Below, one piece after another: positions 1-27,355 of a stretch of 27,355 nt of DNA. The position numbers and the translations under genes are program-made. The DNA lies in IMG/VR virus record IMGVR_UViG_3300045988_120747, positions 1-27,355 of that record; one strand, given 5' to 3'. The stretch comes from a virus. The number at the start of each line of letters is the position of its first letter. The stretch's first letter is position 1. The notes below the pieces were generated by a model that ran no database searches, was not told where the DNA came from, and saw only the letters and a program-made list of their open reading frames with translations.

Positions 1-99
1 CTGAGCGCCGAGCAGTTCACGGCGCTGATGTCTGAGGCAATGGCAGCCTTTGAGGCCGGGCGCAAGACCACGGTCGAGGTCGAGCCTTCAAAAAAAAAC
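1..99. repeat. Terminal direct repeat copy 1, an exact duplicate of 27257..27355; overlap of a circularly closed contig
   Basis: Read directly: bases 1-99 (ctgagcgccgagcagttc...gagccttcaaaaaaaaac) recur base-for-base at 27257-27355. The repeat lies inside a CDS, not at a physical genome end. Confidence 0.95.
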
Positions 100-126
100 G
101 AGGTCAGCCGACCCGAAACAGAGTAG
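1..126 (+). CDS. 3' end of the tail assembly chaperone (gpG-like) gene that starts at 27014 and continues across the circular junction; stop TAG 124..126
   Basis: Frame 1 is open from base 1 (LSAEQFTALMSEAMAAFEAGRKTTVEVEPSKKNEVSRPETE*). Bases 1-99 duplicate the end of the 27014 ORF in the same frame. Confidence 0.8.
   Translation: MSAEQFTALMSEAMAAFEAGRKTTVEVEPSKKNEVSRPETE
90..99 (+). other. Slippery run A9-C (tcA AAA AAA AAC): candidate programmed -1 ribosomal frameshift site of the chaperone G/GT pair (second copy at 27346..27355)
   Basis: Nine consecutive A then C in the zero frame near the end of the chaperone ORF. It contains both A_AAA_AAA and A_AAA_AAC heptamers. The -1 frame is open downstream. 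Confidence 0.65.
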
Positions 127-260
127 AAATCAATCTGGCTTGGTATCTCTTCTATGGCCGGATGCTGAATATGAGCAGACAGGAGATCATTAACACACGC
201 TACGGCAAACATGACAGTAACTGCCCCGACATCGATGCGCGCCCTGCTGGGCGGTACTGA
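96..260 (+). CDS. -1 frame extension (gpT-like part of the chaperone GT fusion), apparently cut short
   Basis: After a -1 slip, frame 3 reads K-RGQPTRNRVEINLAWYLFYGRMLNMSRQEIINTRYGKHDSNCPDIDARPAGRY*, with stop TGA at 258..260. It has no start codon or RBS of its own and lies directly after the major tail and chaperone genes. Confidence 0.55.
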   Translation, partial: KRGQPTRNRVEINLAWYLFYGRMLNMSRQEIINTRYGKHDSNCPDIDARPAGRY

Positions 261-1668
261 GGGCAGCGTACTCGACACGTACCGCGGCGAATTCTTCTTC
301 ACACACTTCCTCACGCAGCTGCTTACGTCACGCGGGCAGAACCGCGGCGTAGTCATACGCTACGGGAAAAACCTTATAGACCTCCGGCAGGAGGAGAACA
401 TTTCCAAGATGTACACCGGGGTATATCCGTATTACGTCGACAGCGAGACCGGAGAGATAACCCAGCTGCCCGACAAAATTGTAGCTGTCCCCGGCACATT
501 TGACTTCATCAACATCCTCATGCTGGACGTCTCGGGAGACTTCGACAGCCCGCCAACCGCGCAGCAGCTTATTCTCAGAGCGCAGAGCTATATCAACGAC
601 AACAATTTAGGAATACCGACCGTCTCCATCTCACTGAGCTATCAAGACATTGCCAGATTGATGGATTCAGCAGCGCCGCCCGAAATGATCAAGCTGTGCG
701 ATACCGTCACGGTCATTTATGAGAAGCTCGGCATTGAGACCACAGCCAAGGTCACGGAAACAGAGTACGATGTGCTGCGCGACAGGTACACTTCAATCAA
801 CATCGGTGACATCCGCGCGAACATTGCTGACACCATATACAGCAACGCGCAGGCGGTCGAGCAAACCGCTATTGACCTCCGCACCGAGACAGGCAAGGCA
901 ATAGCCAACGCGACGCAGCTCATCACGGGCACCAAGGGCGGCAACTTCGTCTTCCAGTTCAACTCCGACGGAAAGCCGATGGGCTTTTCCATCATGGACA
1001 CCGACGATGTGCTGACCGCAACCAATGTATGGCGCTTCAATCTCGGCGGCCTCGGGTACAGCTCCAAAGGCTATAACGGGCCGTTCGGGACAGCAATCAC
1101 GCAGGACGGTAAGATCGTTGCCGACTTTATACAGGCGGGCGCGCTATCCTCGGAGAATGTCACTGTGGGTGGGTTCACGCTCTCCGCGAGCTCACTCAGA
1201 AACGGCATGACGGCGCTCGACGACACAACGCATGACGGTGTGTATGTCGGGCTTGACGGCATAGCGCTCGGCAAAGGCGCATTCAAGGTTGACAAATACG
1301 GCAATCTCACTGCCACCAGCGGCAAGTTCACCGGCAGCGTCTACGCTTCCAGCATCCTGACCGAGGCCGAAGAAACCGGAGCGGGCTACATCGAGGGGAA
1401 TCAAGTTGGAGACTATACACTCTCCGGCGGCAGTGGCGGCAATCTTGCATATGACACAGTTGCCCCGGGAAACAACGACTCAACACTCAGCGGTTATGTC
1501 TCTCGCGGGACCACCGCATACGGGCAGTGCAACGGCGGGAATATCAGCAGCAATTATATCAGCGTTAATTCTCTGGCGGCTGGCGCACTCGGCATCGGCG
1601 GGCATGACTGCTATTTAGGGACACTATCGATTAACGGGATATCACACAATGTTGTTATGTGGGAATAA
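211..1668 (+). CDS. Tail-tip protein (Tal; Prophage_tail / phage minor structural protein family), N-terminally truncated
   Basis: Motifs ALLGGTEGSVLDTYRGEFFF, RGQNRGVVIRYGKNLIDLRQEENISKMYTGVYPYY, NVWRFNLGGLGYSSKGYNGPFGTAITQDGKIVADFIQAG are typical of Firmicute siphophage Tal proteins. From memory the first motif is internal in full-length members. There is no RBS before ATG 211. Confidence 0.8.
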   Translation: MTVTAPTSMRALLGGTEGSVLDTYRGEFFFTHFLTQLLTSRGQNRGVVIRYGKNLIDLRQEENISKMYTGVYPYYVDSETGEITQLPDKIVAVPGTFDFINILMLDVSGDFDSPPTAQQLILRAQSYINDNNLGIPTVSISLSYQDIARLMDSAAPPEMIKLCDTVTVIYEKLGIETTAKVTETEYDVLRDRYTSINIGDIRANIADTIYSNAQAVEQTAIDLRTETGKAIANATQLITGTKGGNFVFQFNSDGKPMGFSIMDTDDVLTATNVWRFNLGGLGYSSKGYNGPFGTAITQDGKIVADFIQAGALSSENVTVGGFTLSASSLRNGMTALDDTTHDGVYVGLDGIALGKGAFKVDKYGNLTATSGKFTGSVYASSILTEAEETGAGYIEGNQVGDYTLSGGSGGNLAYDTVAPGNNDSTLSGYVSRGTTAYGQCNGGNISSNYISVNSLAAGALGIGGHDCYLGTLSINGISHNVVMWE

Positions 1669-1686
1669 TCCCCGAAAGGAGAAATT

Positions 1687-1935
1687 ATGACAGTAGAAAC
1701 AGCCGGAAAATCTTTTGAACTTAAACTCTACGGGCAAATCGAGGAAAACAAGCTGTCCATAGAGTTTGTAGGCACATTCACCGATGCGATCCTCTACCTC
1801 ACGAGCGGGCATCTTGACATAAAGATGAATGACGACCGCACACGCACGTACGACGGATTCACATCAGCTGTATCGGTTCAGCGCGGACTGAAACCCAACT
1901 ATACGAACGTCGTTCTTGAGAGGGTGACGGCATGA
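1687..1935 (+). CDS. Hypothetical tail-associated protein (82 aa)
   Basis: ATG preceded by aaaggag RBS, lying between Tal and the fibre genes. No recognisable domain. Confidence 0.6.
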   Translation: MTVETAGKSFELKLYGQIEENKLSIEFVGTFTDAILYLTSGHLDIKMNDDRTRTYDGFTSAVSVQRGLKPNYTNVVLERVTA

Positions 1936-2111
1936 AACGGGAAGAAAGACTCAAGGCCGTCCGCCGGACACTCGAAGAAATCGACGTGCGCGGCAGAGGC
2001 AACATCGATAAAATGCTCGGCTGCATGATGATGCTCGATCAGATTATAGCCGAGGAGTCGCGGCCTGCACAGGAGGCGAAAGATGAAAGTAACATCTCAG
2101 ATAACGGTTGA
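1932..2111 (+). CDS. Small hypothetical protein (59 aa; below the ORF-track cutoff)
   Basis: ATG overlaps the upstream stop (gcATGA). Translation: MKREERLKAVRRTLEEIDVRGRGNIDKMLGCMMMLDQIIAEESRPAQEAKDESNISDNG*. It overlaps the next gene by 29 nt. Confidence 0.45.
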   Translation: MKREERLKAVRRTLEEIDVRGRGNIDKMLGCMMMLDQIIAEESRPAQEAKDESNISDNG

Positions 2112-3306
2112 CCTGCTTCACCCCAATGTGGCGACGCTGGTTTATGCGAAACAGGCCGACCAGCAGAGCCGCTTTATCTCTGCCGCATTGCTGGAGGGGT
2201 CGCAGCCATGGACACCCCCGACGGGTGCGCTCACCGCTGTAAGGTACCGGAAGCCAGACGGAACTATAGGCTGGTATGACACGACCGAGAACAAGGCCGC
2301 AGCCGTCACCATGAACGGCAACGTCGCTACGATCCAGCTTGCGGCACAGGCGCTGACCGTGAGCGGGGATGTGTATATCGAACTTGAGTTTTACACGCAG
2401 AGCGCCGAAAAGCTTTCAAGCTTCGCATGGGTGCTCGCTGTCGAAGCAAGTGCGGTAAGCGACGGCGAGATTGAAAGCTCGGATTATTTCAATGTTCTGG
2501 CCGAAACGCTCGCCGAGATAGTCAAAGCAATCCCTGACATCCAAAAAGCCAGCGAATATGCTCAGGCAGCCGCACAGTCGGCAACTCAGGCAGCAAACTC
2601 GGAAGCAGCGGCTGAGGCATCTGAACAGGCGGCGGCAGCTTCGGCAACGCAAGCGGCTGAATCCGAAGAGAATAGCGCAACTTCGGCACAAAACAGCAGT
2701 CAAAGCGCCGCAGCGTCGCAGACTTCCGCTGAGGCGGCGGCAGCAAGTCAGCAACTCGCCGCCTCAGCAGCGCAGACAGCAAGCGCTTCCGCTGCTTCGG
2801 CGGCCGAGTCCGAGGAGAATGCAGGAGAGTCGGCGCAGAACAGCGAAGCATGGGCAGTTGGAACCAGAGGCGGACAGGCCGTACCTGCTTCCGACGAAAC
2901 CCACAACAATAATTCAAAGTATTGGGCGCAGCAGGCCGCTGCAGCGGCTGGCGGCGGCGTGATAACGTTCAACGGACGCAGTGGCACCGTGGTGCCAGCA
3001 AACGGGGATTACACCCCCGAGATGGTCGGCGCAGCTCCCGCAATAAAAACGGCAACAGTCACGCTGCCGGTCACATCGTGGACGGGCAGCGCATCACCGT
3101 ACTCGCAGACGGTCACGATCAACGGCGCCACAGCGAATAGCCGTATTGACATTGATCCCGACACCACTGTTATGAACGGAGCAATGGATGGCGGCTACGG
3201 CCTTGTATTTGGCAACAACGCCGGAACTATCACCGCTTATGCAGTCGGAGATAAACCCACTGCGGCAATCACCGTGCAGGTGAGCATCACGGAGGTGACA
3301 GCATGA
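2083..3306 (+). CDS. BppU-N-like baseplate/tail fibre protein with an Ala/Ser/Gln/Glu-rich fibre shaft
   Basis: The N-terminus (ITVDLLHPNVATLVYAKQADQQSRFISAALLEGSQPW) resembles the BppU N-terminal domain. The central low-complexity repeats SATQAA(N/E)SE..., then SEAWAVG....NNSKYWAQQA, are typical of phage fibres. AGGAGG RBS. Confidence 0.7.
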   Translation: MKVTSQITVDLLHPNVATLVYAKQADQQSRFISAALLEGSQPWTPPTGALTAVRYRKPDGTIGWYDTTENKAAAVTMNGNVATIQLAAQALTVSGDVYIELEFYTQSAEKLSSFAWVLAVEASAVSDGEIESSDYFNVLAETLAEIVKAIPDIQKASEYAQAAAQSATQAANSEAAAEASEQAAAASATQAAESEENSATSAQNSSQSAAASQTSAEAAAASQQLAASAAQTASASAASAAESEENAGESAQNSEAWAVGTRGGQAVPASDETHNNNSKYWAQQAAAAAGGGVITFNGRSGTVVPANGDYTPEMVGAAPAIKTATVTLPVTSWTGSASPYSQTVTINGATANSRIDIDPDTTVMNGAMDGGYGLVFGNNAGTITAYAVGDKPTAAITVQVSITEVTA

Positions 3307-4310
3307 GTGAGATATTCGGCAACGGCATCATGGGCGGCGGGGGACTGACTAACTCAAAGCTTGCCCTCGCCAACGCGCAGGCCGCAGATGTACGCAGCGG
3401 TAAAAAGTTCTATGCCGGAGACAAACAGATCAAGACCGGCGCCCTTGCCGACGTTACGCAGGCCACGCCCGCAATAACGGTCGACGCTGCTGGGAAGATC
3501 ACCGCCTCGGCCACACAGGCCGCGGGCGTAGTCGCCGCCGGGACTAAGTCCGCAACGAAGCAGCTGCCAGTTCAAGCGGCGAAGACTGTAATTCCATCGG
3601 CATCCGCCCAGACCGCCGTCGGAGAGGGTGTATTCACGACCGGGATCGTCACCGTCGCCGCCGTCTATGCTGTGATCGACGTGACATACCCCTCGGGGAG
3701 CGTCTGCACCTGTTCAAATGGCAGCGTGACGCTGACAGCGAAGGATACCACCGGTAAAGCGATATTTGTTATCCCCTCCGCCGGAACGTGGACGGTCACG
3801 GCGGTCAGCGGCAGCAAGAGCACGAGCAAGGCCGTGAGCATCACAGCTGAGGGGCAGGTCGAGACCGTGGAGCTGACGTATGGGCTCTATATCTTTAAAA
3901 ATGGATCGGGGCTGACGTCCGGGTACTCAATCAAGAGCAACAGCATGATTTCTGCGCCGACAGTTTCAGGCGACACAATCAGTTGGTCTGGCAACTCCAG
4001 CAGCGGCGGCGTAGCATTCTATATCGACCCCGCCGTCGCGTTGAGTGGCTATACAAAACTGTGTTTCGATTTTGAGTGCTCATACAACTACGGCGGGAAC
4101 TACGGCATGGGATTTGGCGTCGGCACAGATGCCGCGGCCTCCACTACGATCAATAATACTAACTGGACTGCCAAAGTTACCAGCACAGCGCAGGGCACAA
4201 TTGCCCGGAATACGGTGCAGTGCGATATATCGGCGCTGACAGACTCGGAGTATATTAAAGTCGTAGGATCATATTCTGCCGGCGAAATCTATAACATCTG
4301 GCTTGAATGA
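3303..4310 (+). CDS. Putative tail fibre / receptor-binding protein
   Basis: ATGA overlap with the upstream fibre gene. The N-terminal motif ANAQAADVRSGKKFYAGDKQIKTG is common in gut Firmicute phage fibre proteins. The C-terminal half is Gly/Ser/Thr-rich and looks beta-rich. Confidence 0.55.
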   Translation: MSEIFGNGIMGGGGLTNSKLALANAQAADVRSGKKFYAGDKQIKTGALADVTQATPAITVDAAGKITASATQAAGVVAAGTKSATKQLPVQAAKTVIPSASAQTAVGEGVFTTGIVTVAAVYAVIDVTYPSGSVCTCSNGSVTLTAKDTTGKAIFVIPSAGTWTVTAVSGSKSTSKAVSITAEGQVETVELTYGLYIFKNGSGLTSGYSIKSNSMISAPTVSGDTISWSGNSSSGGVAFYIDPAVALSGYTKLCFDFECSYNYGGNYGMGFGVGTDAAASTTINNTNWTAKVTSTAQGTIARNTVQCDISALTDSEYIKVVGSYSAGEIYNIWLE

Positions 4311-4321
4311 GGGGGCGCAGC

Positions 4322-4621
4322 ATGACAATCTACATAGACAGCGATTATAAATGTTACGTCTCCGCATCTGACGGACGCAGAGCAATTGAGGTTAACGACT
4401 TCAATGGCAAATGCCCGGAATGGATAGAAAGTTACCGCTTCGTCCCCGAGGGCGAGACATGGACGCGCGAGGACGGAGAGGTGTTCACGAACATGGCAGC
4501 GCCGTGGAAGGACTTGGGCGAGGCTTACGCGGCGCAGACGGCGTACGTGGCGGCGCAGAATGCGCAGTACGAAGCGGCTTTATCGGAGATAGAGGTAGCG
4601 CTGGGGGTGAATGCTGAATGA
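4322..4621 (+). CDS. Hypothetical protein (start moved to the second ATG, which has an RBS)
   Basis: gaggggg RBS lies 6 nt before ATG 4322. Product: MTIYIDSDYKCYVSASDGRRAIEVNDFNGKCPEWIESYRFVPEGETW... This type of small protein recurs after fibre genes in Clostridia phages (recollection). Confidence 0.6.
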   Translation: MTIYIDSDYKCYVSASDGRRAIEVNDFNGKCPEWIESYRFVPEGETWTREDGEVFTNMAAPWKDLGEAYAAQTAYVAAQNAQYEAALSEIEVALGVNAE

Positions 4622-4746
4622 CGATAGAAGAACGGAAGAATGTCATCCTTGCCAAAATCGCGGAAATAAAGCAGGGTGGAACTGATGAGGAAAAGCAGGA
4701 CATGCAAAACGCCTTGAACGTGCTGGGGGTGACGGTCAATGAGTAA
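4618..4746 (+). CDS. Micro-ORF (42 aa), hypothetical
   Basis: ATGA overlap with the upstream stop. Product: MTIEERKNVILAKIAEIKQGGTDEEKQDMQNALNVLGVTVNE*. Confidence 0.4.
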   Translation: MTIEERKNVILAKIAEIKQGGTDEEKQDMQNALNVLGVTVNE

Positions 4747-4906
4747 AGGCAAATGGACGATAGCTGCGGAGGAAGTAGCCGCCGACACCAAGACCGCACT
4801 GCAAACGGTTTATGACGCGTTGAATCAGGGGCAGCAGAAGAAGATACTCAAGGACGCTCGGGTCAAGGCTCTGTTCGACCGGTACGGCGTGGAGTATACG
4901 GAGTGA
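4739..4906 (+). CDS. Micro-ORF (55 aa), hypothetical
   Basis: gggggtga RBS. Product: MSKGKWTIAAEEVAADTKTALQTVYDALNQGQQKKILKDARVKALFDRYGVEYTE*. Confidence 0.45.
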   Translation: MSKGKWTIAAEEVAADTKTALQTVYDALNQGQQKKILKDARVKALFDRYGVEYTE

Positions 4907-4921
4907 GGAGGTAACTGAGTA

Positions 4922-5023
4922 ATGGACGACGATAAGACCGACAGCGGTTTGCTGACGGAAGATGCCCAGGAGAGTGTAGACCCGACAGGGTGGCTGCTCT
5001 CAAGATTTACGACAGTAACATAA
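4922..5023 (+). CDS. Micro-ORF (33 aa), hypothetical
   Basis: GGAGG lies 10 nt upstream of the ATG. Product: MDDDKTDSGLLTEDAQESVDPTGWLLSRFTTVT*. Confidence 0.3.
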   Translation: MDDDKTDSGLLTEDAQESVDPTGWLLSRFTTVT

Positions 5024-5036
5024 GGAGGAAAACCAG

Positions 5037-5357
5037 ATGAAAGCAATGCTATCACAGCCGATGAACGGCAAACCCGAAGAGGAAATTGTAGCAACGCGAG
5101 AGCGGGCAATAGCCGCGCTTGAGAGCAAGGGCTACGAGGTAGTGAACACACTGTTCACGGATGAATGGTACAGCGACGCAAAATGCAAGGAACGCGGTGT
5201 CGTCAATATTCCGCTGTTGTTCCTTGCGAGGTCTATAACGAACATGAGCCTTTGCCATGCGGCGTATTTCTGCAAAGGATGGAAGAATGCCAGAGGCTGC
5301 ATACTCGAGCACGCTGTCGCCAAGGCTTACGGCCTGACCATCCTTTATGAGGAGTAA
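5037..5357 (+). CDS. DUF4406-like protein (nucleoside 2-deoxyribosyltransferase-like fold)
   Basis: aaggagg RBS. The pattern SQPMNGKPEEEI...GYEVVN...CHAAYFCKGWKNARGCILEHAVAKAYGLTI matches my recollection of the DUF4406 family (PMxG ... GW..S/ARG...E). Confidence 0.55.
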   Translation: MKAMLSQPMNGKPEEEIVATRERAIAALESKGYEVVNTLFTDEWYSDAKCKERGVVNIPLLFLARSITNMSLCHAAYFCKGWKNARGCILEHAVAKAYGLTILYEE

Positions 5358-5362
5358 TCATC

Positions 5363-6070
5363 ATGGGAGTTATAGACAATGCAGTGACCCGCGCGCTGGA
5401 GATAGCGGCGGACGACAGCCACGGCTACGATCAGGCCAACCGCTGGGGGCCTGACTACGATTGCAGCAGTCTGGTGATATCCGCGTTTAAGAAAGCCGGA
5501 GTTCCGCTCAGCTGCACTTACACGGGCAACATGCGCGGAGATATGCTGCGCTGCGGCTTCGAGGACGTGACGGGCAGCGTCGACCTCAGCACCGGCGCGG
5601 GGCTTGAGCGCGGCGACGTGCTCTTGAACCACGTGCATCACACCGCCCTGTATATCGGCGGCGGACAGCTCGTGCAGGCAAGCATCAACGAATATGGCAC
5701 TACGACCGGAGGCCGGACCGGCGACCAGACCGGGCGCGAGATATACACGCGCGGATACTACAACTATCCGTGGGACTGCGTACTGCGCTACACCGGGGCA
5801 GAACCGGACACGGTGCCGGCCACAAAGAAGCCGACACGCTATGTCACTGTCGAGCTGCCCATGCTGGAGGACGGCCAGACCGGCGTGGTTGTTGCGATGC
5901 TTCAGGCGGCCTTGAAGTATCTTGGCTATGATCCTAAGTGGATCGACGGCGAGTTCGGAACCAGGACGCGCAATATGCTCATGGCCTATCAGGCGGAGCA
6001 CGGCCTTGAAGCTGACGGCATCTGCGGCGCGGCCACGTACAAGAGCTTGATAGGAGGTGGACAGAAATGA
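5363..6070 (+). CDS. Endolysin: NlpC/P60-type cysteine peptidase plus a C-terminal PG_binding_1 domain
   Basis: Catalytic-type motifs are YDCSSLV (Cys) and HHTALYIGGG (His). The C-terminus LQAALKYLGYDPKWIDGEFGTRTRNMLMAYQAEHGLEADGICG is a classic peptidoglycan-binding repeat. Confidence 0.9.
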   Translation: MGVIDNAVTRALEIAADDSHGYDQANRWGPDYDCSSLVISAFKKAGVPLSCTYTGNMRGDMLRCGFEDVTGSVDLSTGAGLERGDVLLNHVHHTALYIGGGQLVQASINEYGTTTGGRTGDQTGREIYTRGYYNYPWDCVLRYTGAEPDTVPATKKPTRYVTVELPMLEDGQTGVVVAMLQAALKYLGYDPKWIDGEFGTRTRNMLMAYQAEHGLEADGICGAATYKSLIGGGQK

Positions 6071-6154
6071 CGAAAATTCTGACATGAACCGGCGCGGCAA
6101 GTAACTATATGCACGAAAAACCATGATTTTTGACAACATGAAGGAGAAACAAAA

Positions 6155-6652
6155 ATGAATGCACCTGAAAAAGCCTTACAGTTCAAGGCATGGATCGTCG
6201 CAGCTATCGCATTCCTCACAGCATTGTGGGGCTGGGTAGGCTGGGCTGTAATAATCTGGGTCGCCTGTATAGTCCTCGACTATGCCACGGGAACCTGGGC
6301 CGCGAAGAGCGCCGGGGACTGGTCGTCCGCCGTAGCGAGAGCGGGACTGTGGCACAAGCTGGGCGAGATCGTCGCCGTGCTTGTGGCGGCGCTCTGCGAT
6401 ATAGCAATTAGTGTAATAATTAACGGTGCCGGCATAGACATCGGCATAACGTTCGGGACGCTCATCACGCCGGTCGTGCTGCTCTGGTACATAATAACAG
6501 AGCTCGGCAGCATCGTCGAGAACGCTGGAAAGCTCGGCGCGCCTATCCCGGAATGGCTTAAGAAGTGGCTCAGAAATTATAAAGACAAGATAGATTCAGA
6601 TCACGAGCCACCCGTTGAAATAATCGAGTCGGAAGAAACTCAGAACGAATAA
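6155..6652 (+). CDS. Holin (phage_holin_4_1 / LL-H-type family)
   Basis: Several transmembrane helices. The motifs DYATGTWAAK, GLWHKLGEIV and ELGSIVENAGKLGAPIP are typical of this holin family. It lies next to the endolysin. Confidence 0.85.
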   Translation: MNAPEKALQFKAWIVAAIAFLTALWGWVGWAVIIWVACIVLDYATGTWAAKSAGDWSSAVARAGLWHKLGEIVAVLVAALCDIAISVIINGAGIDIGITFGTLITPVVLLWYIITELGSIVENAGKLGAPIPEWLKKWLRNYKDKIDSDHEPPVEIIESEETQNE

Positions 6653-6703
6653 GCAACACGCGCCGCGTGCAGTCGAAGGCTTGCGTACCTACGCGGGGGT
6701 AGC

Positions 6704-6728
6704 AACTGCTTCCAAAATGGAAGCAGTT
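6704..6728. other. Perfect 10-bp-stem hairpin in the holin-integrase intergenic region (candidate attP region 6653..6770)
   Basis: aactgcttcc-aaaat-ggaagcagtt. It is flanked by an imperfect inverted pair gcgtgcag (6666..6673) / ctgcaccc (6736..6743). Confidence 0.5.
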
Positions 6729-6764
6729 ATATAGGCTGCACCCGCAGATACAAAAGAATAGAGC

Positions 6765-6805
6765 AAAAAAGAACCGAGCGGGTTATTCCGCTCGGCTCTT
6801 TTTTT
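6765..6805. terminator. Bidirectional rho-independent terminator shared by the lysis operon and the integrase
   Basis: A6 - ccgagcgg - gttatt - ccgctcgg - T7. The integrase stop codon (6783..6785) lies in the loop. Confidence 0.75.
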
Positions 6806-8393: not shown

Positions 8394-8410
8394 ATGACAC
8401 CCTCTTTCAA

Positions 8411-8440: not shown

Positions 8441-8444
8441 TTTA

Positions 8445-18846: not shown

Positions 18847-19184
18847 GTAAAAGCGGATTGCTCGCCCGGCAGAAGGCCGAACGCGAACTGTGGACGATTA
18901 AAGTGATCGCCTACACCGAGCAGCAGACGCTTGATGCGGTGTGCCTCGCACTCGCTGAGGGCTTCGGGTTCGGTGAGGAGCGGCTGAAGCGCTTCCACGA
19001 TGCGTTCAATGCCAAGTACGCGGAGATCCGCGAGTTGGAAAAGGGCGACACCAAGGATAACGAGTATGCCATTACCAAGCAGGAGGCCGCGCTCAAGGCA
19101 GCCTGTGGTAAGTACTATTCGCCTCGCGAGGTGCGATATGATATCAAGATCGTCACGCGAGACGGCAAGCAACACAAGTTGTGA
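18843..19184 (+). CDS. Hypothetical protein (113 aa)
   Basis: ATGA overlap. No domain recognised. Confidence 0.6.
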   Translation: MSKSGLLARQKAERELWTIKVIAYTEQQTLDAVCLALAEGFGFGEERLKRFHDAFNAKYAEIRELEKGDTKDNEYAITKQEAALKAACGKYYSPREVRYDIKIVTRDGKQHKL

Positions 19185-19207
19185 TAAGGAAGCATAAAGT
19201 AGATTGT

Positions 19208-19236
19208 AAGGTGCTGCCGGTCAGCGGCAGCACCTT
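19208..19236. other. Perfect 12-bp-stem hairpin (no T-run)
   Basis: aaggtgctgccg-gtcag-cggcagcacctt. Confidence 0.6.
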
Positions 19237-19269
19237 AGAGCCCACTTTGAGGCGGAGGATATTGAAAAA

Positions 19270-19295
19270 GCAAACGCGCGCGCACGCGCGTTTGC
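19270..19295. other. Perfect 11-bp GC-rich hairpin preceded by A5 (terminator-like on the minus strand)
   Basis: aaaaa-gcaaacgcgcg-cgca-cgcgcgtttgc. Confidence 0.6.
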
Positions 19296-19354
19296 GAGCT
19301 CGGTAAGAGCCTAAGTAATCCGCCATTCTTTATTTAGATAAAAAGGAGCGCACC

Positions 19355-20182: not shown

Positions 20183-20520
20183 AGAACAAAAGCAACATAG
20201 TTCACGATCGACTTTGCACAGATTGCTACCGGAAGCTGGAGACGCTGTTCACCCTGCACGATATTCCGCCCATCCGTCAGCGCGGAGGCCGGGGCAAGTG
20301 CGGCCTGTGTGATTTCCGCGGGGAGCTGACAGAAATCGAGTACGACAGAGTGAAAGACAAGCGTTCACCGGAAGAGCGGGCGCGGCTGCGCGCGGAGCTG
20401 AACGCCCCGCCGAAGACCCGCGAGGAGATCAGGCACCGGGAAGAACCGGCGCCGGCACCGAAGGACTACGGATTCACGCAGCAGACGTTCCTCGACCTCG
20501 CCGCGATGGACAAGCTTTGA
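20179..20520 (+). CDS. Hypothetical protein with a CxxC...CxxC motif (113 aa)
   Basis: ATGA overlap. The product contains LCTDCYRKL....KCGLCDF. Confidence 0.55.
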   Translation: MKNKSNIVHDRLCTDCYRKLETLFTLHDIPPIRQRGGRGKCGLCDFRGELTEIEYDRVKDKRSPEERARLRAELNAPPKTREEIRHREEPAPAPKDYGFTQQTFLDLAAMDKL

Positions 20521-20537
20521 CAGGAGGGCGGGGGTAG

Positions 20538-20948
20538 ATGAGTAAAACGCGGTACAAGTGGTGGGGGTTTGTGAAATCTATCATCCGGGCATATCCGGCG
20601 CATTGCAGTGAACTTAAGGCGCTCCGAGCGCAAACGATCACGGCAAGATACGGGGCATCAACCGGGGGCAGCAGCGATACGCAGCGCACTGCGGAGTCTG
20701 TCGCGCTTCGAGAACTTCCACCTGAGGACATGCGCGAATATCGAGCAGTGGAGGCGGCGCTCCTGGCAACGCGCCGAAACTGCGCGACGGCTGCGGAGCG
20801 CACGAGACTTATCAGCATGGTTTTCTTCGAGCAGACGCACACCTTACAGGGCGCGGCGCTCGCCTTGAATGTGTCATACGGAACGGCCAAGAATTGGCAC
20901 AACGATTTTATCAAGCTCACGGCAAAAAAATACGGCCTGAATGTTTAG
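20538..20948 (+). CDS. RinA/ArpU-like late transcriptional activator (sigma-70 region-4-like HTH)
   Basis: The C-terminus TRLISMVFFEQTHTLQGAALALNVSYGTAKNWHNDFIKLTAKKYGL is a typical HTH of this class. It lies immediately upstream of the HNH and terminase genes. Confidence 0.6.
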   Translation: MSKTRYKWWGFVKSIIRAYPAHCSELKALRAQTITARYGASTGGSSDTQRTAESVALRELPPEDMREYRAVEAALLATRRNCATAAERTRLISMVFFEQTHTLQGAALALNVSYGTAKNWHNDFIKLTAKKYGLNV

Positions 20949-21177
20949 CCAAAAAAGCCGTGAACAAGAGGTATGATATATATGCTCAGAAAGCGGCGGG
21001 AGATGAAAGAACCGCCGTCAGACAGCTCATGGGTTCCATCTCGCCCATGGCGCGATTCTGTCTCCCGCGGGATTAAAATTATGAAATGCAGACACGATGA
21101 ACAATATCTGTCGCGCATGGCTGCCGGTATCCTTTGCCGACGATGCGGCCAGCGCTTCATAGATGACATGGCGTTGA

Positions 21178-21459
21178 ATGCCGACCGGTACAATGGACAT
21201 AACGAACGAGTACAAAACCGCACGATGGAAAAGAACCAGAGAAAAAATCCTGAGGCGTGATATGTATATGTGCCGAGAGTGCAGACGCTACGGCCGTCTC
21301 ACCGAAGCAACCGAGGTGCATCACATCAGGCACGCCGACGCGGCGCCTGAGCTTTTCTACACGGAGAGCAATCTCGTGAGCCTCTGCAAAAAATGCCACA
21401 ATAAGCAGCACCCGGAAAAAGCCAAAAATCGATCCAATTCCGATAGAGGGAAATATTGA
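21178..21459 (+). CDS. HNH endonuclease (packaging-associated)
   Basis: YKTARWKRTREKILRRDMYMCRECRRYGRLTEATEVHHIRH....NLVSLCKKCHNKQH. The start could be ATG 21178 or ATG 21193; neither has a clear RBS. Confidence 0.85.
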   Translation: MPTGTMDITNEYKTARWKRTREKILRRDMYMCRECRRYGRLTEATEVHHIRHADAAPELFYTESNLVSLCKKCHNKQHPEKAKNRSNSDRGKY

Positions 21460-21520
21460 TACCCCGCCCCGGTACGCGCGCCCGCGTATCGCGCGCGCTT
21501 AATGGCGGGGGTAGCTTTCT
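21460..21520. other. GC-rich nested inverted repeats between HNH and terS (candidate cos/packaging region)
   Basis: taccccgcc...ggcgggggta encloses tacgcg-cgcc-cgcgta and a gcgcgcgc run. It is the only such GC-rich structured non-coding stretch in the window. Confidence 0.35.
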
Positions 21521-21559
21521 CCAACTCTAAGGATTTTTACAGAAAGGGGGTAAACGCGA

Positions 21560-21919
21560 ATGACACGAAAAAAATGGCGGGAAGCCATATTGAACGATAT
21601 GCGGCAGCTCGACATAGATTCAACCGGGTTTGACATCACGATAAACCTTGCCGCCGATACGCTCTATGAGCTCGATCGGGCACGCACCGCATACAAGAAA
21701 AGCGGCTCTATCGCCGTGATAGAGCACACGAACAAAAACGGGAGCACCAACAAAGCAAAGAACCCGGAATTGACAATCGTCCTTGACCTCAAATCCAAAG
21801 CCCGTGAATTTCTGGCCGAGCTTGGCCTGACCCCCGCCGCACAAAAGCGGTTGACAAACGATGCCCCCAAAAAGGAGAAGCTCAGTCCGCTGGCCAAAGC
21901 GCTGAGCGAGATAAAATGA
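21560..21919 (+). CDS. terS: Terminase small subunit, P27 family
   Basis: About 120 aa. The pattern W......L.....G.D....L..Y......A......G.....TNKNGSTNKAKNPELTIVLDL..KAREFLAELGLTPAAQ is typical of P27-type TerS. It lies directly upstream of terL. Confidence 0.8.
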   Translation: MTRKKWREAILNDMRQLDIDSTGFDITINLAADTLYELDRARTAYKKSGSIAVIEHTNKNGSTNKAKNPELTIVLDLKSKAREFLAELGLTPAAQKRLTNDAPKKEKLSPLAKALSEIK

Positions 21920-23268
21920 GAGCAATCACCGGGCGGAATTGGGATGTGGTCCTTGAGTATGCCGAGAGCATACGCAGCGGCCGGAAATGCGCCTGCCCCG
22001 AGCTCAAGCAAGCGGTTGAGCGTTTCTTCCGAGACCTCGACGACCCAAGATATTACCTTGACCCTAAAGGCCCTGAGTTCTGCATTCAGATCATCGAAAA
22101 GACGATAGTCCACAAGCAGGGCGAGAAGCTTGACGGCACACCGCTTAGAGGAACACCGTTCCTACTGGAACCGTTCCACAAATTCATCATCTACAACGTC
22201 GTCGGGTTCAAACTGACAGGGACGGATGTGGCAAGGTATCACGAAGCCCTGATCTTTATCCCGCGAAAAAACATCAAGACCACCTTTGCGGCAAGCCTGG
22301 CATTCGCTCTATCACTATATTACCGCAAGAGCGGGAGCAAGTGTTACATCGTCGGTGCGGCGCTGAAACAGAGCTTGGAAAGCTTTGAATTTCTGGAATA
22401 CAACATCAAGCACATGGGCGAGGACGCCGCGAGCGGCGGGGCGGTAAAAATTATCAACAACAACAATGAGCATTCCTTAAGGGCGGAGCTGCCCGGCGGG
22501 GACGGCTCATTTTTCATTCAATCCCTCGCGGCAAACCCTGACGCGCAAGACTCACTGAACTGCAACCTTGCAATCTGCGATGAGCTGCACGCCTATAAAA
22601 AGCCGAAGCAGTACAACCTCTTCAAGGAAGCCATGAAGGCCTATTCGAACAAGCTTCTGATCGGCATCAGCACGGCAGGGGATAACGAGCAGATGTTCCT
22701 TGGACAAAGGCTGAAATACTGCCGCAAGGTACTTGAGGGGATAATCAGCGATGAGCAGCTGTTCATCTTCATGTGCTGTGCTCCAAAAGACCCGGAGACG
22801 GGCGAGGTGGATTTCACAAACCCGACAGTCCATGAGATGGCAAATCCGGCCTATGGCATCAGCATACGCCCTGAGGAGATTCTCAACGACAGCATTCAGG
22901 CGCAGAACGACTCACAGCAGCGCAAAGATTTCTTTGCAAAAAGCCTGAACGTCTACACAAATTCCATCAAGGCGTATTTCAACATTGATGAGTTCCGCCG
23001 GTCCGATAAAAAGTATGACTGGACGCTCGACCAGCTACGGCGGCTGCCGATCAAATGGTACGGCGGCGCTGACCTCTCAAAGCTGCATGACCTCACTGCC
23101 GCCGCCCTTGTCGGCAACTACAAGGGCGTGGATATCATCATCACGCACGCCTTTTTCCCGGTGGCTGTCGCCCACAGAAAGGCGGACGAAGATAACATTC
23201 CTCTGTTCGGATGGCAGGATGACGGATGGCAATTAAAGCAATTATGCTGCGCAAGCGCATCGAACTGA
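21916..23268 (+). CDS. terL: Terminase large subunit (Terminase_1 type), C-terminally truncated
   Basis: Walker-like region IFIPRKNIKTTFAA, LAICDELHAY, ISTAGDN, and the start of the nuclease domain (WYGGADLSKLHDLTAAALV). The ORF ends after ...PLFGWQDDGW plus 12 unrelated residues. At 450 aa it is short for a family I recall as well over 500 aa. Confidence 0.85.
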   Translation: MRAITGRNWDVVLEYAESIRSGRKCACPELKQAVERFFRDLDDPRYYLDPKGPEFCIQIIEKTIVHKQGEKLDGTPLRGTPFLLEPFHKFIIYNVVGFKLTGTDVARYHEALIFIPRKNIKTTFAASLAFALSLYYRKSGSKCYIVGAALKQSLESFEFLEYNIKHMGEDAASGGAVKIINNNNEHSLRAELPGGDGSFFIQSLAANPDAQDSLNCNLAICDELHAYKKPKQYNLFKEAMKAYSNKLLIGISTAGDNEQMFLGQRLKYCRKVLEGIISDEQLFIFMCCAPKDPETGEVDFTNPTVHEMANPAYGISIRPEEILNDSIQAQNDSQQRKDFFAKSLNVYTNSIKAYFNIDEFRRSDKKYDWTLDQLRRLPIKWYGGADLSKLHDLTAAALVGNYKGVDIIITHAFFPVAVAHRKADEDNIPLFGWQDDGWQLKQLCCASASN

Positions 23269-24908
23269 AAAAGGCCGAGCTTGCCCAGCACAGGGAAAGA
23301 GCAAAAGAGTTTGAAACTCGCAAATCCGACATCACCGAGGCAATCGGTGAGGCCACCACTGAGGAGGAGATCGACGCTCTCAATGAGGGCATGGATCAGC
23401 TTGAAACCGAGTGGAAAGAGCACGAGGAGACCGAAAATCGCCTCAGCGGCGAAATCGCGGCGCTTGAGCAGCAGCTCACCGAAGAGGAGCAGCGCGGCAC
23501 GCCGCCCATCAACAACCCCGAGAGCGGGGCAAATACCGAAAGGAGCAATCATATGACCACCACCATCAACATCCGTTCTCTGCCCTTTGGCCAGAGAGTA
23601 ATGGACGCGCTGCCTCGCCAGGAGCGCGACGCAATCATCGGGCAGGAGGATAGTAAAAACTTCCTCGCACAGCTGCGCAGCCTCAAGGGCGAGAAGCGCG
23701 GCGTCAGCGGCGGTGAGCTGACCATTCCTGTCGTATTCCTCGACCTCATCGCCGAGAATATGTACAGATACAGCAAGCTGCTCAACCGCGTCCGTGTGCG
23801 CTCTGTTACGGGCACCACCCGTCAGACCATCGCGGGCACGGTCCCGGAAGCTGTCTGGACGGAGATGTGCGCAGCTATCAATGAGCTGACTCTGGTATTC
23901 AACCAGACCACGCTTGATGGCTACAAGGTAGCGGGCTTCGTACCTGTCTGCAACAGCCTGCTGGAGGACAACGACGTCAACCTCGCAAGCTGGATCGTTG
24001 AGATGCTTTCCGAAAGCATCGGCCTCGCAATCGACAAGGCGATCCTCTACGGCAAGGGCGCAGCCAACAGTATGCCTCTCGGCATTGTAACCCGCCTTGC
24101 ACAGCAGAGCAAGCCCGCCGGGTACCCGGCTGCCGCCCCTGCATGGGTCGACCTCCACACCAGCAACATCCTCAAGATCGATGCCAGCAAGACCGGCGCT
24201 GAGTTCTGGGCAGCCCTCCAGATCGCGGCAGGCGCCACGTTCACCCGTTACAGCCGCGGTAATCAGTTCTGGGCGATGAACAGCAAGACCTACGCGCTTC
24301 TCAAGTCCAAGGCAATCACTTTCACCGCATCCGGTGATGTTGTAGCCAATGTTTACGGCATCCTGCCCATCGTGACCGGCGATATCGACATTCTGGAGTT
24401 CATCCCGGACGGCGATATCATCGGCGGTTACGGCGACCTGTACCTCTACGCCGACCGCGCGAGAATGACGATTGAGGAGAGCCGCGAGGTGCAGTTCCTT
24501 CAGGACAACACCGTATTCAAGGGCAAGGCCCGTGCGGACGGTACGCCGGTCGTTCCGGGCGCGTTCGTTGCGATTAATATCAACGGCAGCGAAGTTACCA
24601 CCGCAATGACGTTTGCAGCTGACACGGCGAACGACGCCGACCTTGATTCCCTCAGCGTCGGCACCGGCTCACTCAGCCCGGCCTTTGATGCGGCCACTCA
24701 GAGCTACACGCTCTCTACCACGGCGGCATCCCTCGCAGTCAACGCAGCGGCGGCACAGATCGACGCAAAGGTAGCGATTAGCTACGGCGGAAAGAATGTA
24801 GCCAACGGCGGCAACATTACCCCGACTGCCGGGGCGAGCACCCTCACCGTGACCGTGACCAATGGCAACGCGACCAAGGTGTACACCGTCGCGATCACCA
24901 AGACCTGA
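23226..24908 (+). CDS. HK97-fold major capsid protein with an N-terminal coiled-coil (delta/scaffold-like) region and a C-terminal cadherin-like/Ig-like domain
   Basis: The core motifs LTIPVVFLD, DGYKVAGFVPVCNSLLEDNDVNLASWIVEMLSESIGLAIDKAILYGKG, LGIV and FLQDNTVFKGKARADG are typical of the Phage_capsid family. There is no RBS before either ATG (23226 or 23244). Confidence 0.85.
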   Translation: MAIKAIMLRKRIELKKAELAQHRERAKEFETRKSDITEAIGEATTEEEIDALNEGMDQLETEWKEHEETENRLSGEIAALEQQLTEEEQRGTPPINNPESGANTERSNHMTTTINIRSLPFGQRVMDALPRQERDAIIGQEDSKNFLAQLRSLKGEKRGVSGGELTIPVVFLDLIAENMYRYSKLLNRVRVRSVTGTTRQTIAGTVPEAVWTEMCAAINELTLVFNQTTLDGYKVAGFVPVCNSLLEDNDVNLASWIVEMLSESIGLAIDKAILYGKGAANSMPLGIVTRLAQQSKPAGYPAAAPAWVDLHTSNILKIDASKTGAEFWAALQIAAGATFTRYSRGNQFWAMNSKTYALLKSKAITFTASGDVVANVYGILPIVTGDIDILEFIPDGDIIGGYGDLYLYADRARMTIEESREVQFLQDNTVFKGKARADGTPVVPGAFVAININGSEVTTAMTFAADTANDADLDSLSVGTGSLSPAFDAATQSYTLSTTAASLAVNAAAAQIDAKVAISYGGKNVANGGNITPTAGASTLTVTVTNGNATKVYTVAITKT

Positions 24909-24925
24909 TCTGAAAGGAGCTGCTT

Positions 24926-25210
24926 ATGACGAACGACGAACTGCTCACGATGCTGAAGTATAACCTCAACAAGACCGCAGCGGCGCAGGAGCCGTATCTT
25001 CAGCAGCTCCTTGAAGTTGCGGCGCATGAAATCCGCAGGGAGGGCATAAAAACCCTCTCTGCGGACAACCTTGATGACTGCAACCTGATCGTGATGTATG
25101 CGGCGTATCTGTTTCGCAAGCGCGCCGAGGACAACCCGGTCATGCCGCGAATGCTCCGATATGCCCTTAATAACCGCCTGTTTGCGGAGAAGCTTGGAGG
25201 CACGACATGA
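24926..25210 (+). CDS. Head-tail connector (gp6-like adaptor)
   Basis: gaaaggag RBS. LLTMLKYNLNKT......YLQQLLEVAAHEIRREGI....NLIVMYAAYLFRKR is typical of gp6-like connectors. It lies right after the capsid gene. Confidence 0.7.
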   Translation: MTNDELLTMLKYNLNKTAAAQEPYLQQLLEVAAHEIRREGIKTLSADNLDDCNLIVMYAAYLFRKRAEDNPVMPRMLRYALNNRLFAEKLGGTT

Positions 25211-25557
25211 CGCTTGACAGTGGCATCCTGACCGTGTGCAAGCTCAAGAACACAGCGGCAGCCGGGCAAATGCCGGTCATGCAGCTTGCACAGCAGTCGA
25301 CGCATTACTACGGTGAGCGGACCGTGGGCTATAACAGGCAGTACGCGGCCATGGGCGTGAATCAGCAGATAGATATGCTGGTACGCATATGGCAGGACAG
25401 AGCCGTCAAGATCGGTATGTGCGCCGTCCTCGAGGATGATTCACAGTACCGGATAGACAACGTGCAGCATCTGCTTGATAGTGACGGCTTGGAGGTCACA
25501 GACCTGACCTTAAGCGCGTTGGAGGAGTTCTATGATGTCTTACCGGGAACGCCTTGA
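25207..25557 (+). CDS. Head closure / head-tail adaptor (Phage_H_T_join-like)
   Basis: ATGA overlap. The pattern YYGERTVGYNRQYAAMGVNQQIDMLVRIW....YRIDNVQH, together with size and position, fits this family. Confidence 0.55.
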   Translation: MTLDSGILTVCKLKNTAAAGQMPVMQLAQQSTHYYGERTVGYNRQYAAMGVNQQIDMLVRIWQDRAVKIGMCAVLEDDSQYRIDNVQHLLDSDGLEVTDLTLSALEEFYDVLPGTP

Positions 25558-25861
25558 AAGTATCGGCACTGCACTTGCAACGGCGGTGCCGAACACATAT
25601 CACTACTTCCGCCCGAACCTCCAGCCCCCATTTTGCATATGGGCGGAAGAAAACGGGAGCAGCTTTGCCGCAGACAACAAGACGGTTGAGCACGCGCTCA
25701 CGGGCACTGTGGACTATTTCAGCAAGCAGGAATATGACCCGGCACCGGATGCCATAGAAAGCACCCTGAGCGGGTTAGGACTCATCTGGGAGCTGAACAG
25801 CGTACAGTACGAAGATGAAACCGAGCTTATTCACCATGAATGGACATGGAGTATGCGCTAA
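25532..25861 (+). CDS. Neck / tail-completion protein, family unassigned
   Basis: ggaggag RBS. About 109 aa, lying between the adaptor and the gp10-like gene. Confidence 0.5.
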   Translation: MMSYRERLESIGTALATAVPNTYHYFRPNLQPPFCIWAEENGSSFAADNKTVEHALTGTVDYFSKQEYDPAPDAIESTLSGLGLIWELNSVQYEDETELIHHEWTWSMR

Positions 25862-26367
25862 TGGCAACGATGAAGTTTACCGGCCTCGGCGAATACCTCA
25901 CGAAGCTCGGCGCGCTTGAGGGCGATGAGGAAATAATAAAGCGCGCCGTCTATAAAGGCGCGGCTGTGGTCGCAGATGCCATAAAAGCGGAGCTGGAGGG
26001 TTTGCCGACCATCACCAATGAAGAGGCCATGCACCGGTACAACTCACGAAACCCGTCGGCTTCATCTATGCAGTACATAAGCGAGCCGCAGAAAAAGGGC
26101 TTGATTGACGGTTTCGGTCTCGCCCCAATCGAGAACACCGAGGATTATATCAGCACCAAGGCCGGATTTGACGGCTACAACGGAGTAAAAACAAAGCGCT
26201 GGCCGCACGGTCAGCCCAATGCGATGATAGCCCGTGCTGTCGTGAGCGGGACGTCATTCATGCAGAAAAATGATTTTGTCGGGCGTGCGACGCGCAAGGC
26301 CAAAAAGGCAGCTGAGGCGGCCATGGCGAAATCACTTGACGACGACATAAAAAACAAAATGAAATGA
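25861..26367 (+). CDS. HK97 gp10-family neck/tail-completion protein
   Basis: TAATG overlap start at 25861. Size and the pattern ...AVYKGAAVVADAIKAEL....NAMIARAVVSGTSFMQKNDFV fit the family, as does its position before the major tail gene. Confidence 0.6.
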   Translation: MATMKFTGLGEYLTKLGALEGDEEIIKRAVYKGAAVVADAIKAELEGLPTITNEEAMHRYNSRNPSASSMQYISEPQKKGLIDGFGLAPIENTEDYISTKAGFDGYNGVKTKRWPHGQPNAMIARAVVSGTSFMQKNDFVGRATRKAKKAAEAAMAKSLDDDIKNKMK

Positions 26368-26377
26368 GGCGAATCAT

Positions 26378-27001
26378 ATGTCAGCAGCAGGAAAAGTCTG
26401 TACCGGCTTCTCACGCCCGTGGGTAGCCAAGTACAGCGCAAACGGCGGCACCGTCACATACTCAGGCGCTATGCAGCTTGCCCGCGGCGTAGAGGTCAAG
26501 ATCGACCCGGAAACCGCGGCAGACAATACGTTTTATGCCGACAACATGGCGGCTGAGAGCCAGGAGGGTGTTCTCACCGGCGGCACTACCACCCTGACGG
26601 TCGACGGCCTGTTCCGCAAGGCAGAGGATCTGATAATGGGTCTGCCTGAGACCAAGAGCAAGATCACAATCGACGGCAGCACGCAGGTCAGCGTTACGGA
26701 CTACGACGACGATATGAAGATTCCGTATATCGGGCTTGGCTTCGTCGTGCGGTATATGTCCGACGGTGTCACATCGTACAGCCCGGTAGTACTCACTAAG
26801 CTCCGCACTACCGCATCCTCGGAAGAATACGCCACGCAGGAAGAGGAAATCGACTGGCAGACAAAGGAGCTTGAAATGTCCATACACCGCGACGACAGCA
26901 CTAAGCACCGCTGGAAGCGCGTGGCGGACGATCAGGAGAGCGAAGACGCCGCCGAGGCCTGCATCAAGGCCATGCTCAACTATACAGAGCCGGGCGGCTG
27001 A
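26378..27001 (+). CDS. Major tail (tube) protein, phi13/TP901-1-like
   Basis: 207 aa, lying immediately upstream of the frameshifting chaperone gene. The patterns FYADNMAAES, LTVDGL and ATQEEEIDWQTKELEMSIHRDD resemble this family. Confidence 0.7.
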   Translation: MSAAGKVCTGFSRPWVAKYSANGGTVTYSGAMQLARGVEVKIDPETAADNTFYADNMAAESQEGVLTGGTTTLTVDGLFRKAEDLIMGLPETKSKITIDGSTQVSVTDYDDDMKIPYIGLGFVVRYMSDGVTSYSPVVLTKLRTTASSEEYATQEEEIDWQTKELEMSIHRDDSTKHRWKRVADDQESEDAAEACIKAMLNYTEPGG

Positions 27002-27013
27002 TAGGAGGCTGTT

Positions 27014-27355
27014 ATGATCATATTCGGCAAAGAACGCGGTTTTAGTTTCACCGTCGGTGCGTCCGTGGAGATTGCGGAGATGTGCCCTGACGGCGACCTG
27101 ACCAAGATTGAGAAGTTTCTCAGCGGCAAGTACGGCAGAGTGACGCGCAACGGCGCAAAGCTCATCATTGAGCTCAACAAGGCCTATGAGATGCAGCGCA
27201 GCTTTGAAAATGAGACCTACAAGCCCGAGCCCCTGACCATGGCACAGGTCATGGCACTGAGCGCCGAGCAGTTCACGGCGCTGATGTCTGAGGCAATGGC
27301 AGCCTTTGAGGCCGGGCGCAAGACCACGGTCGAGGTCGAGCCTTCAAAAAAAAAC
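27014..27355 (+). CDS. Tail assembly chaperone (gpG-like), 5' part; runs off the window end and continues at base 100 (stop at 124..126 after circularisation)
   Basis: taggagg RBS. The product MIIFGKERGFSFTVGASVEIAEMCPDGDLTKIEKFLSG...EVEPSKKN is open to the last base of the window. It is absent from the ORF track because it has no stop codon in the window. Confidence 0.8.
   Translation, partial: MIIFGKERGFSFTVGASVEIAEMCPDGDLTKIEKFLSGKYGRVTRNGAKLIIELNKAYEMQRSFENETYKPEPLTMAQVMALSAEQFTALMSEAMAAFEAGRKTTVEVEPSKKN
27257..27355. repeat. Terminal direct repeat copy 2 (identical to 1..99)
   Basis: Exact 99/99 identity, read directly. Confidence 0.95.

Follow-up and report, generated by a model that had tools for sequence, protein, structure and literature searches.

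How did a circular viral genome without portal or tape-measure genes come to be assembled from a human stool sample, and what kind of element is it? The question is raised by IMG/VR virus record IMGVR_UViG_3300045988_120747, all 27,355 nucleotides of which we analysed and refer to as the window. A preliminary description, made with no database searches, had read it as a deletion derivative with independent, clean losses of essential genes, assembled as an excised circle, and comparison with relatives upholds this reading, with two such losses, both in essential morphogenesis genes. We consider the window to be a genuine, very recent and sporadic double-deletion derivative, private to one sample, of a common temperate siphovirus of ~32.86 kb, hence a defective genome of the 'cheater' type and not an established satellite lineage (rough probability 0.75).

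Relatives of the window number hundreds in IMG/VR, eight of them sharing 96–99.9% DNA identity and being full length at both of the sites at which the window is interrupted. The best comparator was the Logan contig ERR14036118_16388 (L167; 32,889 nt, ~32,858 + 31), which is collinear with the window and showed 99.87% identity over window positions 3829–18392 and 10180–23229, and 100.000% identity over 23226–27355; the early region was 99.87% identical to L167/L185. Near-identical full-length relatives carry, in 2,225 and 3,380 bp that are absent from the window, exactly the genes whose loss had been suspected, namely those for the nuclease end of the large terminase subunit (TerL), the portal, the protease, the tape-measure protein (TMP), Dit and the N-terminus of Tal, which confirms these losses. 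The lengths also agree, with 27,256 bp for the circle + 2,225 + 3,380 = 32,861, against ~32,858, and the full-length relative measures 32.9 kb rather than the 35–40 kb first envisaged. The gene-length lists of window and parent are otherwise the same, with no further decay, and a third deletion in the replication region was ruled out by the collinearity of the early region with a full-length genome. In the ERR14036118 genome the endolysin is shortened (L167 12239–13029; 188 amino acids (aa), with no PG_binding_1 match) and the window keeps the usual 235-aa form, so that genome is not the direct ancestor. The junctions, the deleted segments and the genes that border them are as follows.

23226–23229, plus strand: junction A, with a 4-nt microhomology (ATGG) that includes the start codon of the major capsid protein
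Window 23229 joined to 23226: deletion A, 2,225 bp, with loss of TerL residues 439–583, the portal (PF04860, 403 aa) and the Peptidase_S78 protease
21916–23268, plus strand: shortened TerL, residues 1–438 of 583 followed by 12 out-of-frame residues (450 aa)
23226–24908, plus strand: major capsid protein, 560 aa, intact, HK97-type (PF05065)
202–213, plus strand: junction B, with the breakpoint within ACGGC (202–206), a 5-nt exact microhomology inside a 12-nt imperfect one
Near 202–213: deletion B, 3,380 bp, with loss of the end of tail assembly chaperone T, TMP (720 aa), Dit (PF05709, 235 aa) and Tal residues 1–137
211–1668, plus strand: fragment of Tal (tail-associated/Prophage_tail), 485 aa, residues 138–622 of the 622-aa parent protein
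1–99, no strand: assembler overlap, identical to 27257–27355

Genes were mapped from Pfam, PHROG and NCBIfam scans, together with the gene calls attached to look-ups and a circular open reading frame (ORF) analysis. In the parent type the gene order is HNH-TerS-TerL-portal-S78 protease-MCP(PF05065)-connectors-tube-G/GT-TMP-Dit-Tal, where MCP is the major capsid protein, and full-length relatives carry this whole HNH-cos HK97-like siphovirus set while the window has only part of it, with no portal, protease, TMP or Dit found in it by these scans. The ATPase domain of TerL is intact and its nuclease domain is cut at about half (nuclease profile positions 6–155 of 286). The capsid protein has an N-terminal delta-like coiled coil and a C-terminal Ig/cadherin-like domain, and its native ribosome-binding site is gone. 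The Tal fragment, which matches PF06605 (profile positions 63–247), phrog_1067 (positions 150–590) and, by tblastn, residues 135–621 of 622, begins at an internal Met with no obvious ribosome-binding site, and the frameshifted T part of the chaperone extends to ~257 and is cut by junction B.

The window is circular, as had been supposed. Its source contig (ena:ERZ27260652:k99_73361) was made by MEGAHIT with a final k of 99, and an exact 99-nt end overlap equal to the assembler k denotes a circular de Bruijn path, here of 27,256 bp; the same equality ruled out the 99-nt repeat as a biological direct terminal repeat. The same 27,256-bp circle was present in a second assembly (ERZ28666989 scaffold_262, ZEEV15-1_SAMEA3646699; 27,311 nt with a 55-nt overlap), and a third consists of at least four k = 31 Logan contigs from run ERR1110315. 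All three assemblies are 100% identical to the window, and both junctions, the wrap and attP were reproduced at 100% at k = 99 (MEGAHIT), k = 55 (scaffold) and k = 31 (Logan), the last with one contig spanning junction A (L082), one junction B and the wrap (L174), one attP (L170) and one cos (L187). Very probably the three derive from a single run and sample, ERR1110315 of Zeevi 2015. No full-length branch survives at either junction in any assembly, from which it follows that each deletion allele strongly predominates; the deletion allele is dominant at both junctions in its single stool sample, and by a pigeonhole argument most molecules should then carry both.

We also assessed how widely the deletions occur. 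The 450-aa TerL and 485-aa Tal proteins that mark the junctions were found only on these three assemblies among 153 billion indexed gene positions, the junction A and B strings were absent from IMG/VR, and in JGI metagenomes, searched with the junction A string only, there was one unrelated 22-mer chance match, in a 395-kb contig. By contrast, 430 index blocks list the exact capsid protein, and all 10 of the places shown carry the series TerL583-portal-protease...TMP-Dit-Tal622. Likewise, the loci fetched from other samples were full length in 160/160 assessable at junction A and 12/12 at junction B. The parent is a widespread human-gut phage, and the double deletion is private to one sample.

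Microhomology is present at both junctions, and for random joins the joint chance of at least 4 nt and at least 5 nt is ~7e-5. In the parent, the ATGG found at the left end of junction A supplies the first four bases of a perfect 10-bp inverted repeat (ATGGTTGACC, 17 nt, GGTCAACCAT), where the overall fold energy is unexceptional (z -1.0). At junction B the left breakpoint falls inside a hairpin loop closed by an 11-bp stem (DNA fold z -4.56, which 0/200 shuffles reach). We infer that replication slippage or template switching made both deletions, which would have been two separate events in vivo, each with microhomology and a hairpin. An integrated 9.1-kb remnant of the same family, described further below, has a TerL breakpoint ('AT', L002 6460–6461) within 4 nt of the left breakpoint of junction A ('ATGG', L002 6460–6463), both being at the 5′ foot of the perfect 10-bp inverted repeat. 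The chance of such a shared breakpoint is ~0.004 by a rough estimate, and the foot of the TerL inverted repeat may be a deletion hot spot.

In our reading the parent is a phage of human-gut Clostridia that uses cos packaging (HNH-TerS-TerL) and integrates into a tRNA-Leu(CAA) gene. Judging by its genes, the deletion derivative itself should still integrate, excise and replicate as well as maintain immunity; its cos should be recognised, and it should lyse its host cell. It would be unable to make proheads, having no portal or protease, or tails, having no TMP, Dit or Tal N-terminus, and with half a nuclease domain it would also be unable to complete cos cleavage. Cell-to-cell spread would then need the morphogenetic proteins of a full-length relative. 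The features on which these predictions draw, and the remaining genes of the window, are listed here.

1687–4310, plus strand: distal tail and fibre genes (82 aa, 59 aa, a 407-aa BppU-like fibre and a 335-aa fibre), collinear with relatives, with the fibre proteins at 2083–4310
5037–5357: DUF4406/deoxyribosyltransferase-like gene
5363–6652, plus strand: lysis module, with an NlpC/P60-ELLD-PG_binding endolysin (5363–6070) and a holin (6155–6652)
6783–8393, minus strand: large serine integrase (int), 536 aa, with Resolvase, Recombinase and Zn_ribbon_recom domains
6852–6863, no strand: attP core TGGTACCGGTGG, inside the 3′ end of int
8445–11330, minus strand: lysogeny/immunity block, with HicB (8445–8849) and HicA (8885–9082)
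9155–9733 and 9934–10665, minus strand: membrane-anchored helix-turn-helix (HTH) protein and 243-aa membrane protein, respectively
10938–11330, minus strand: cI-like HTH repressor
11475–19184, plus strand: early region of many small ORFs, rightward
13955–14371 and 14985–15842: early-region VRR-NUC and PAPS-reductase-like genes, respectively
15839–16390 and 17717–18298: early-region MT-A70 methyltransferase and ASCH-like genes, respectively
19355–20182, plus strand: putative replication initiator, 275 aa (phrog_3584 'replication initiation protein', E 5.7e-46)
20538–20948, plus strand: 136-aa HTH protein in the late-activator position (best match HTH_23, E 0.011; no family match)
21262–21459, plus strand: HNH endonuclease, a cos-phage packaging accessory (PF01844)
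21470–21530, no strand: putative cos region, a GC-rich and palindromic (CCCCGCC...GGCGGGG) spacer between HNH and TerS
21560–21919, plus strand: small terminase TerS, 119 aa (PF05119, phrog_361)
24926–26367, plus strand: four head-tail connector genes (94, 116, 109 and 168/175 aa)
26378–27001, plus strand: major tail protein
27014–27355 and across the wrap to 126, plus strand: tail assembly chaperone G

Nearly all of the genes first credited to the element (integrase, repressor, HNH, TerS, capsid, connectors, tube, chaperone, fibres and lysis) are indeed retained, the one to fall away being a RinA-like activator, a name that the ORF at 20538–20948 owed to its position and for which no RinA/ArpU family support was found. 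The reported loss of any recognisable replication module was mistaken, given the collinear early region and the phrog_3584 match at 19355–20182, an ORF that is present in all full-length relatives. This ORF also has a weak match to PF23343 REP_ORF2-G2P (E 0.0045, below the family cut-off) over an HUH-like motif, VRVHHHLIV, and is possibly an initiator of the HUH/rolling-circle type; a PDB sequence search with the protein returned only noise. The connectors and major tail protein (24926–27001) are 100.000% identical to the parent, and the cos/TerS region (21400–21600) is likewise identical. No tRNAs and no partition genes were found in the window, and the Pfam, PHROG and NCBIfam scans detected no hijack or interference families (capsid redirection, packaging interference or helper-sensing derepression). 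An A9 run at 27345–27353 (= 89–97), at the end of chaperone G and inside the assembler overlap, is likely the G/GT programmed-frameshift site, and capsid residues 475–559 (window 24650–24908) match the C-terminal cadherin/Ig-like family PF12733 (E 0.0035), possibly a fused decoration domain.

The attP suggested earlier could be refined to a core at 6852–6863, which we defined by comparing attL/attR of integrated relatives (the full-length L190, and L198, L199 and L200) with the window. Imperfect inverted repeats flank the core at ~6838–6850 and 6875–6887, and attB corresponds to the 3′ end of a gene that ARAGORN called as tRNA-Leu(CAA). Both the window and the k = 31 contig L170 run uninterrupted across the core, which identifies the attP form, either an excised circle or a concatemer; the attL/attR arrangement of a resident chromosomal prophage was not seen, the core being uninterrupted in all three assemblies. 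No integrated copy was detectable in ERR1110315, to judge from the lack of a branch at the core in the k = 31 contig. The core lies within the last ~27 codons of int (window 6783–6863), so that after integration the int ORF reads into host DNA, and int was called as 542 aa in L199 and 558 aa in L200, both cut by the locus end. For a serine integrase, the 3′ end of a tRNA-Leu gene is a somewhat unusual target.

The putative cos could be narrowed in the same way, since the contigs of 19/80 IMG/VR relatives end 384–413 nt upstream of the TerL start, equivalent to window ~21505–21530. The contig ends of many independent relatives (L005, L008, L009, L015–L021 and others) fall within ~25 nt of each other just upstream of terS, and these clustered ends are probably the cohesive ends. 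All assemblies of the window's own sample run through cos, and some full-length relatives also assemble through it.

A recurrent, integrated remnant of ~9.1 kb (L198–L202; 5 contigs from at least 5 samples) came to light through an odd 471-aa portal homologue, P0002, which is a fusion of portal(1–379) to the C-terminus of the tail tube. It sits at tRNA-Leu(CAA) with host DNA on both flanks and contains int-HicBA-repressors, a few early genes, a 148-aa TerL C-terminal ORF, a 55-aa ORF, endolysin and holin, and it is probably a classical decaying prophage that is vertically inherited. Like this and other cryptic or decaying prophages, the window has lost essential morphogenesis genes by deletion, and one TerL breakpoint of the remnant matches that of the window within 4 nt. 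However, the remnant is integrated, has undergone 3 or more large deletions and was met repeatedly, in at least 5 samples, whereas the window, observed a single time, has the attP form and keeps all its other ORFs intact. This contrasting member of the same family agrees with the original remark that the element does not look like a prophage decaying in a chromosome.

Two accounts of how the deletion derivative came to be abundant can be set against each other, and we hold them to be about equally possible, each only tentatively. In the first it is an active helper-dependent mini-phage, packaged at its intact cos by a co-infecting or co-resident full-length relative and spreading as virions. 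Consistent with this, cos, TerS, HNH, the replication gene, immunity and the integrase are all kept, attP-form free DNA is dominant with no integrated copy in the k = 31 contigs, and human guts very commonly harbour full-length relatives whose structural genes are identical. At 83% of the parental length the genome would fit the head of a cos-phage helper, as lambda-type cos packaging tolerates such a reduction, and the breaks in the Logan contigs hint at related sequences with shared short stretches in the sample. The co-occurring full-length relative that the preliminary description had suggested looking for was not detected, however: both junctions are crossed by unbranched k = 31 contigs, and judging by this assembly behaviour an isogenic full-length helper is undetectable in ERR1110315. 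Such a helper would moreover be homoimmune and would have to be a co-resident prophage. A wider helper search gave a portal cluster of 447 member sequences that are not separable by sample, and a divergent helper may still be present. In addition, the element is known from one sample only, it has gained no interference or hijack genes, and its assemblies pass through cos, where 19/80 relatives' contigs end. More doubtful still is the stronger proposal that it is a natural defective-interfering ('cheater') genome of a tailed temperate phage in the human gut, which overtook its helper and came to dominate the free phage DNA of the sample. In that case slippage would have struck twice, once at the recurrent terL hairpin hot spot, and removed only trans-complementable head and tail genes, leaving cos, replication, immunity and integration in a genome that at 83% could still be packaged.

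In the second account the window is the dead-end product of a defective prophage or infection, which excises, replicates to high copy and lyses the cell unpackaged, with the reads coming from intracellular or free circles and concatemers. The predicted excision, replication and lysis genes look intact, no helper is visible, and cos is spanned at k = 31, 55 and 99, as expected if the shortened terminase never cuts. A lysogen reservoir would nonetheless be required, yet no attL/attR branch breaks the k = 31 contig across 6852–6863, and free copies would need to outnumber integrated ones heavily.

A mixed population collapsed into one path, with deletions A and B on different molecules and the majority allele chosen at each site, is unlikely. 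It draws on the fact that no single read or k = 31 contig links the junctions, L082 covering only A and L174 only B, but the dominance of each deletion, with no full-length branch at either junction in three assemblies, forces most molecules to carry both by the pigeonhole argument given above. We regard as very improbable a plasmid-like episome, in which the family or the mutant would persist extrachromosomally by means of HicAB and Rep with the virion genes dispensable. All 15 contigs that carry exactly this integrase have the attP form, none being longer than 50 kb, and HicAB and a Rep-like gene are present, but integrated full-length and remnant relatives are known at tRNA-Leu, partition genes were not found and the organisation is typical of a temperate phage. 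A chimeric assembly or library artefact is scarcely credible even with all the evidence probably coming from one sequencing run, because the junctions are identical at k = 31, 55 and 99, their 4–5-nt microhomology is far below any k used and makes a graph misjoin (one of the mundane explanations offered at first) impossible, rare chimeras would not take over as the sole path at both junctions, and the microhomology and hairpins match in vivo slippage.

Several points weigh against a recent double-deletion derivative private to one sample. There is no independent biological replicate, and the three assemblies show read support rather than biological replication. The linkage of both deletions in cis rests on short-read assemblies, the junctions being 4.1 kb apart and joined by no single k = 31 contig. 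Absence elsewhere comes partly from exact-protein look-ups, which miss fragmented genes, and the Rep, late-activator and cos functions were assigned by homology or position. Finally, a non-autonomous genome dominates here as free DNA although neither an integrated copy nor an isogenic helper is detectable.

Deletion genomes of the defective-interfering kind are known from poliovirus (DI PV1) and from Flock House virus, in which double deletions flank a needed middle segment, and phages have yielded fewer reports of them than animal and plant viruses have, for which sampling bias may be the reason (PMC8635385). The window resembles such genomes in its origin from a complete virus that lost trans-complementable structural genes through internal deletion, in keeping cis elements and replication functions (at the level of sequence), in having two deletions that flank a retained middle segment, and in lacking functions essential for autonomous virion production. 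It differs in that its parent is a double-stranded DNA tailed temperate phage, in being only 17% shorter and in coming from one sample; packaging by a helper and interference with that helper's replication are candidate properties here. The miniphages of f1 are further examples of defective-interfering deletion genomes. With phage satellites (SaPI/PICI, capsid-forming PICI, P4 and PLE) the window shares an integrase, its own putative replication initiator, TerS, HNH and cos, and likewise it would be unable to form virions alone. Unlike them it is 99.9–100% identical to a complete phage, its gene content is a subset of the parent's, and at 27 kb it keeps most structural and lysis genes, with no hijack or interference genes and no recurrence. 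The term satellite-like, used of it initially, finds no support in an element so close to a complete phage, with no genes gained and one sample only. Relative to HK97-like cos siphoviruses with an HNH-assisted terminase, it is without six parent-type functions, wholly or partly.

The window is a concrete, read-supported candidate, in public data, for a rarely reported phage defective-interfering genome, and with the parent genome, attP/attB, the cos region and the exact junctions now defined, packaging and the presence of a helper can be tested in public reads. It also carries a warning for catalogues, as a metagenomic viral contig labelled 'circular, complete' can be a defective mutant without portal and tape measure. 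Should it be nothing more than a dead-end mutant, it would count as a routine outcome of replication slippage, with little further consequence.

Regarding the host, TerL showed only 78–80% identity to proteins in GTDB representative genomes, the matches being in metagenome-assembled genomes (MAGs) of various Clostridia and other phyla, and we place the host among gut Clostridia that carry the tRNA-Leu(CAA) attB, and no more finely than that. No megablast match for 25 kb was found among 50,697 GenBank phage records. A phage relative with 78% TerL identity lies on a 23.6-kb contig of a 'Helicobacter pylori' isolate assembly (L084, NZ_JAHXLB010000019.1), which is probably contamination of that assembly, and similar doubt attaches to matches in MAGs of Collinsella, Gastranaerophilales and Cyanobacteria.

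In the Logan assembly of ERR1110315 the 27-kb circle comes in 7 or more k = 31 contigs (L187, L082, L174 and L170 among them), with breaks at 3479, 5816, 14731, 17783, 21543–21562, 23628 and 26971; a 20-nt overlap between L187 and L082 points to a ~40-nt shared node at the terS start. The breakpoints did not fall on boundaries between variants in the relatives that were fetched, and the breaks may be caused by unrelated phages in the sample that share the mosaic early module or short stretches. That early module (window 11475–20520) is highly mosaic among L203, L204, L206 and L208–L210, and the exact MT-A70 protein with its neighbouring small ORFs also occurs in phages whose modules for packaging and structure are quite unlike those of the window (Terminase_6N/SPP1 portal, P22 portal). 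Tad2-like (anti-Thoeris family) or Lar genes are present in some relatives, with none in the window. Among phages with an identical capsid protein (L175–L184) the tape measure is 642, 694 or 720 aa long, and in L177 the TMP region was called as two ORFs of 642 and 83 aa.

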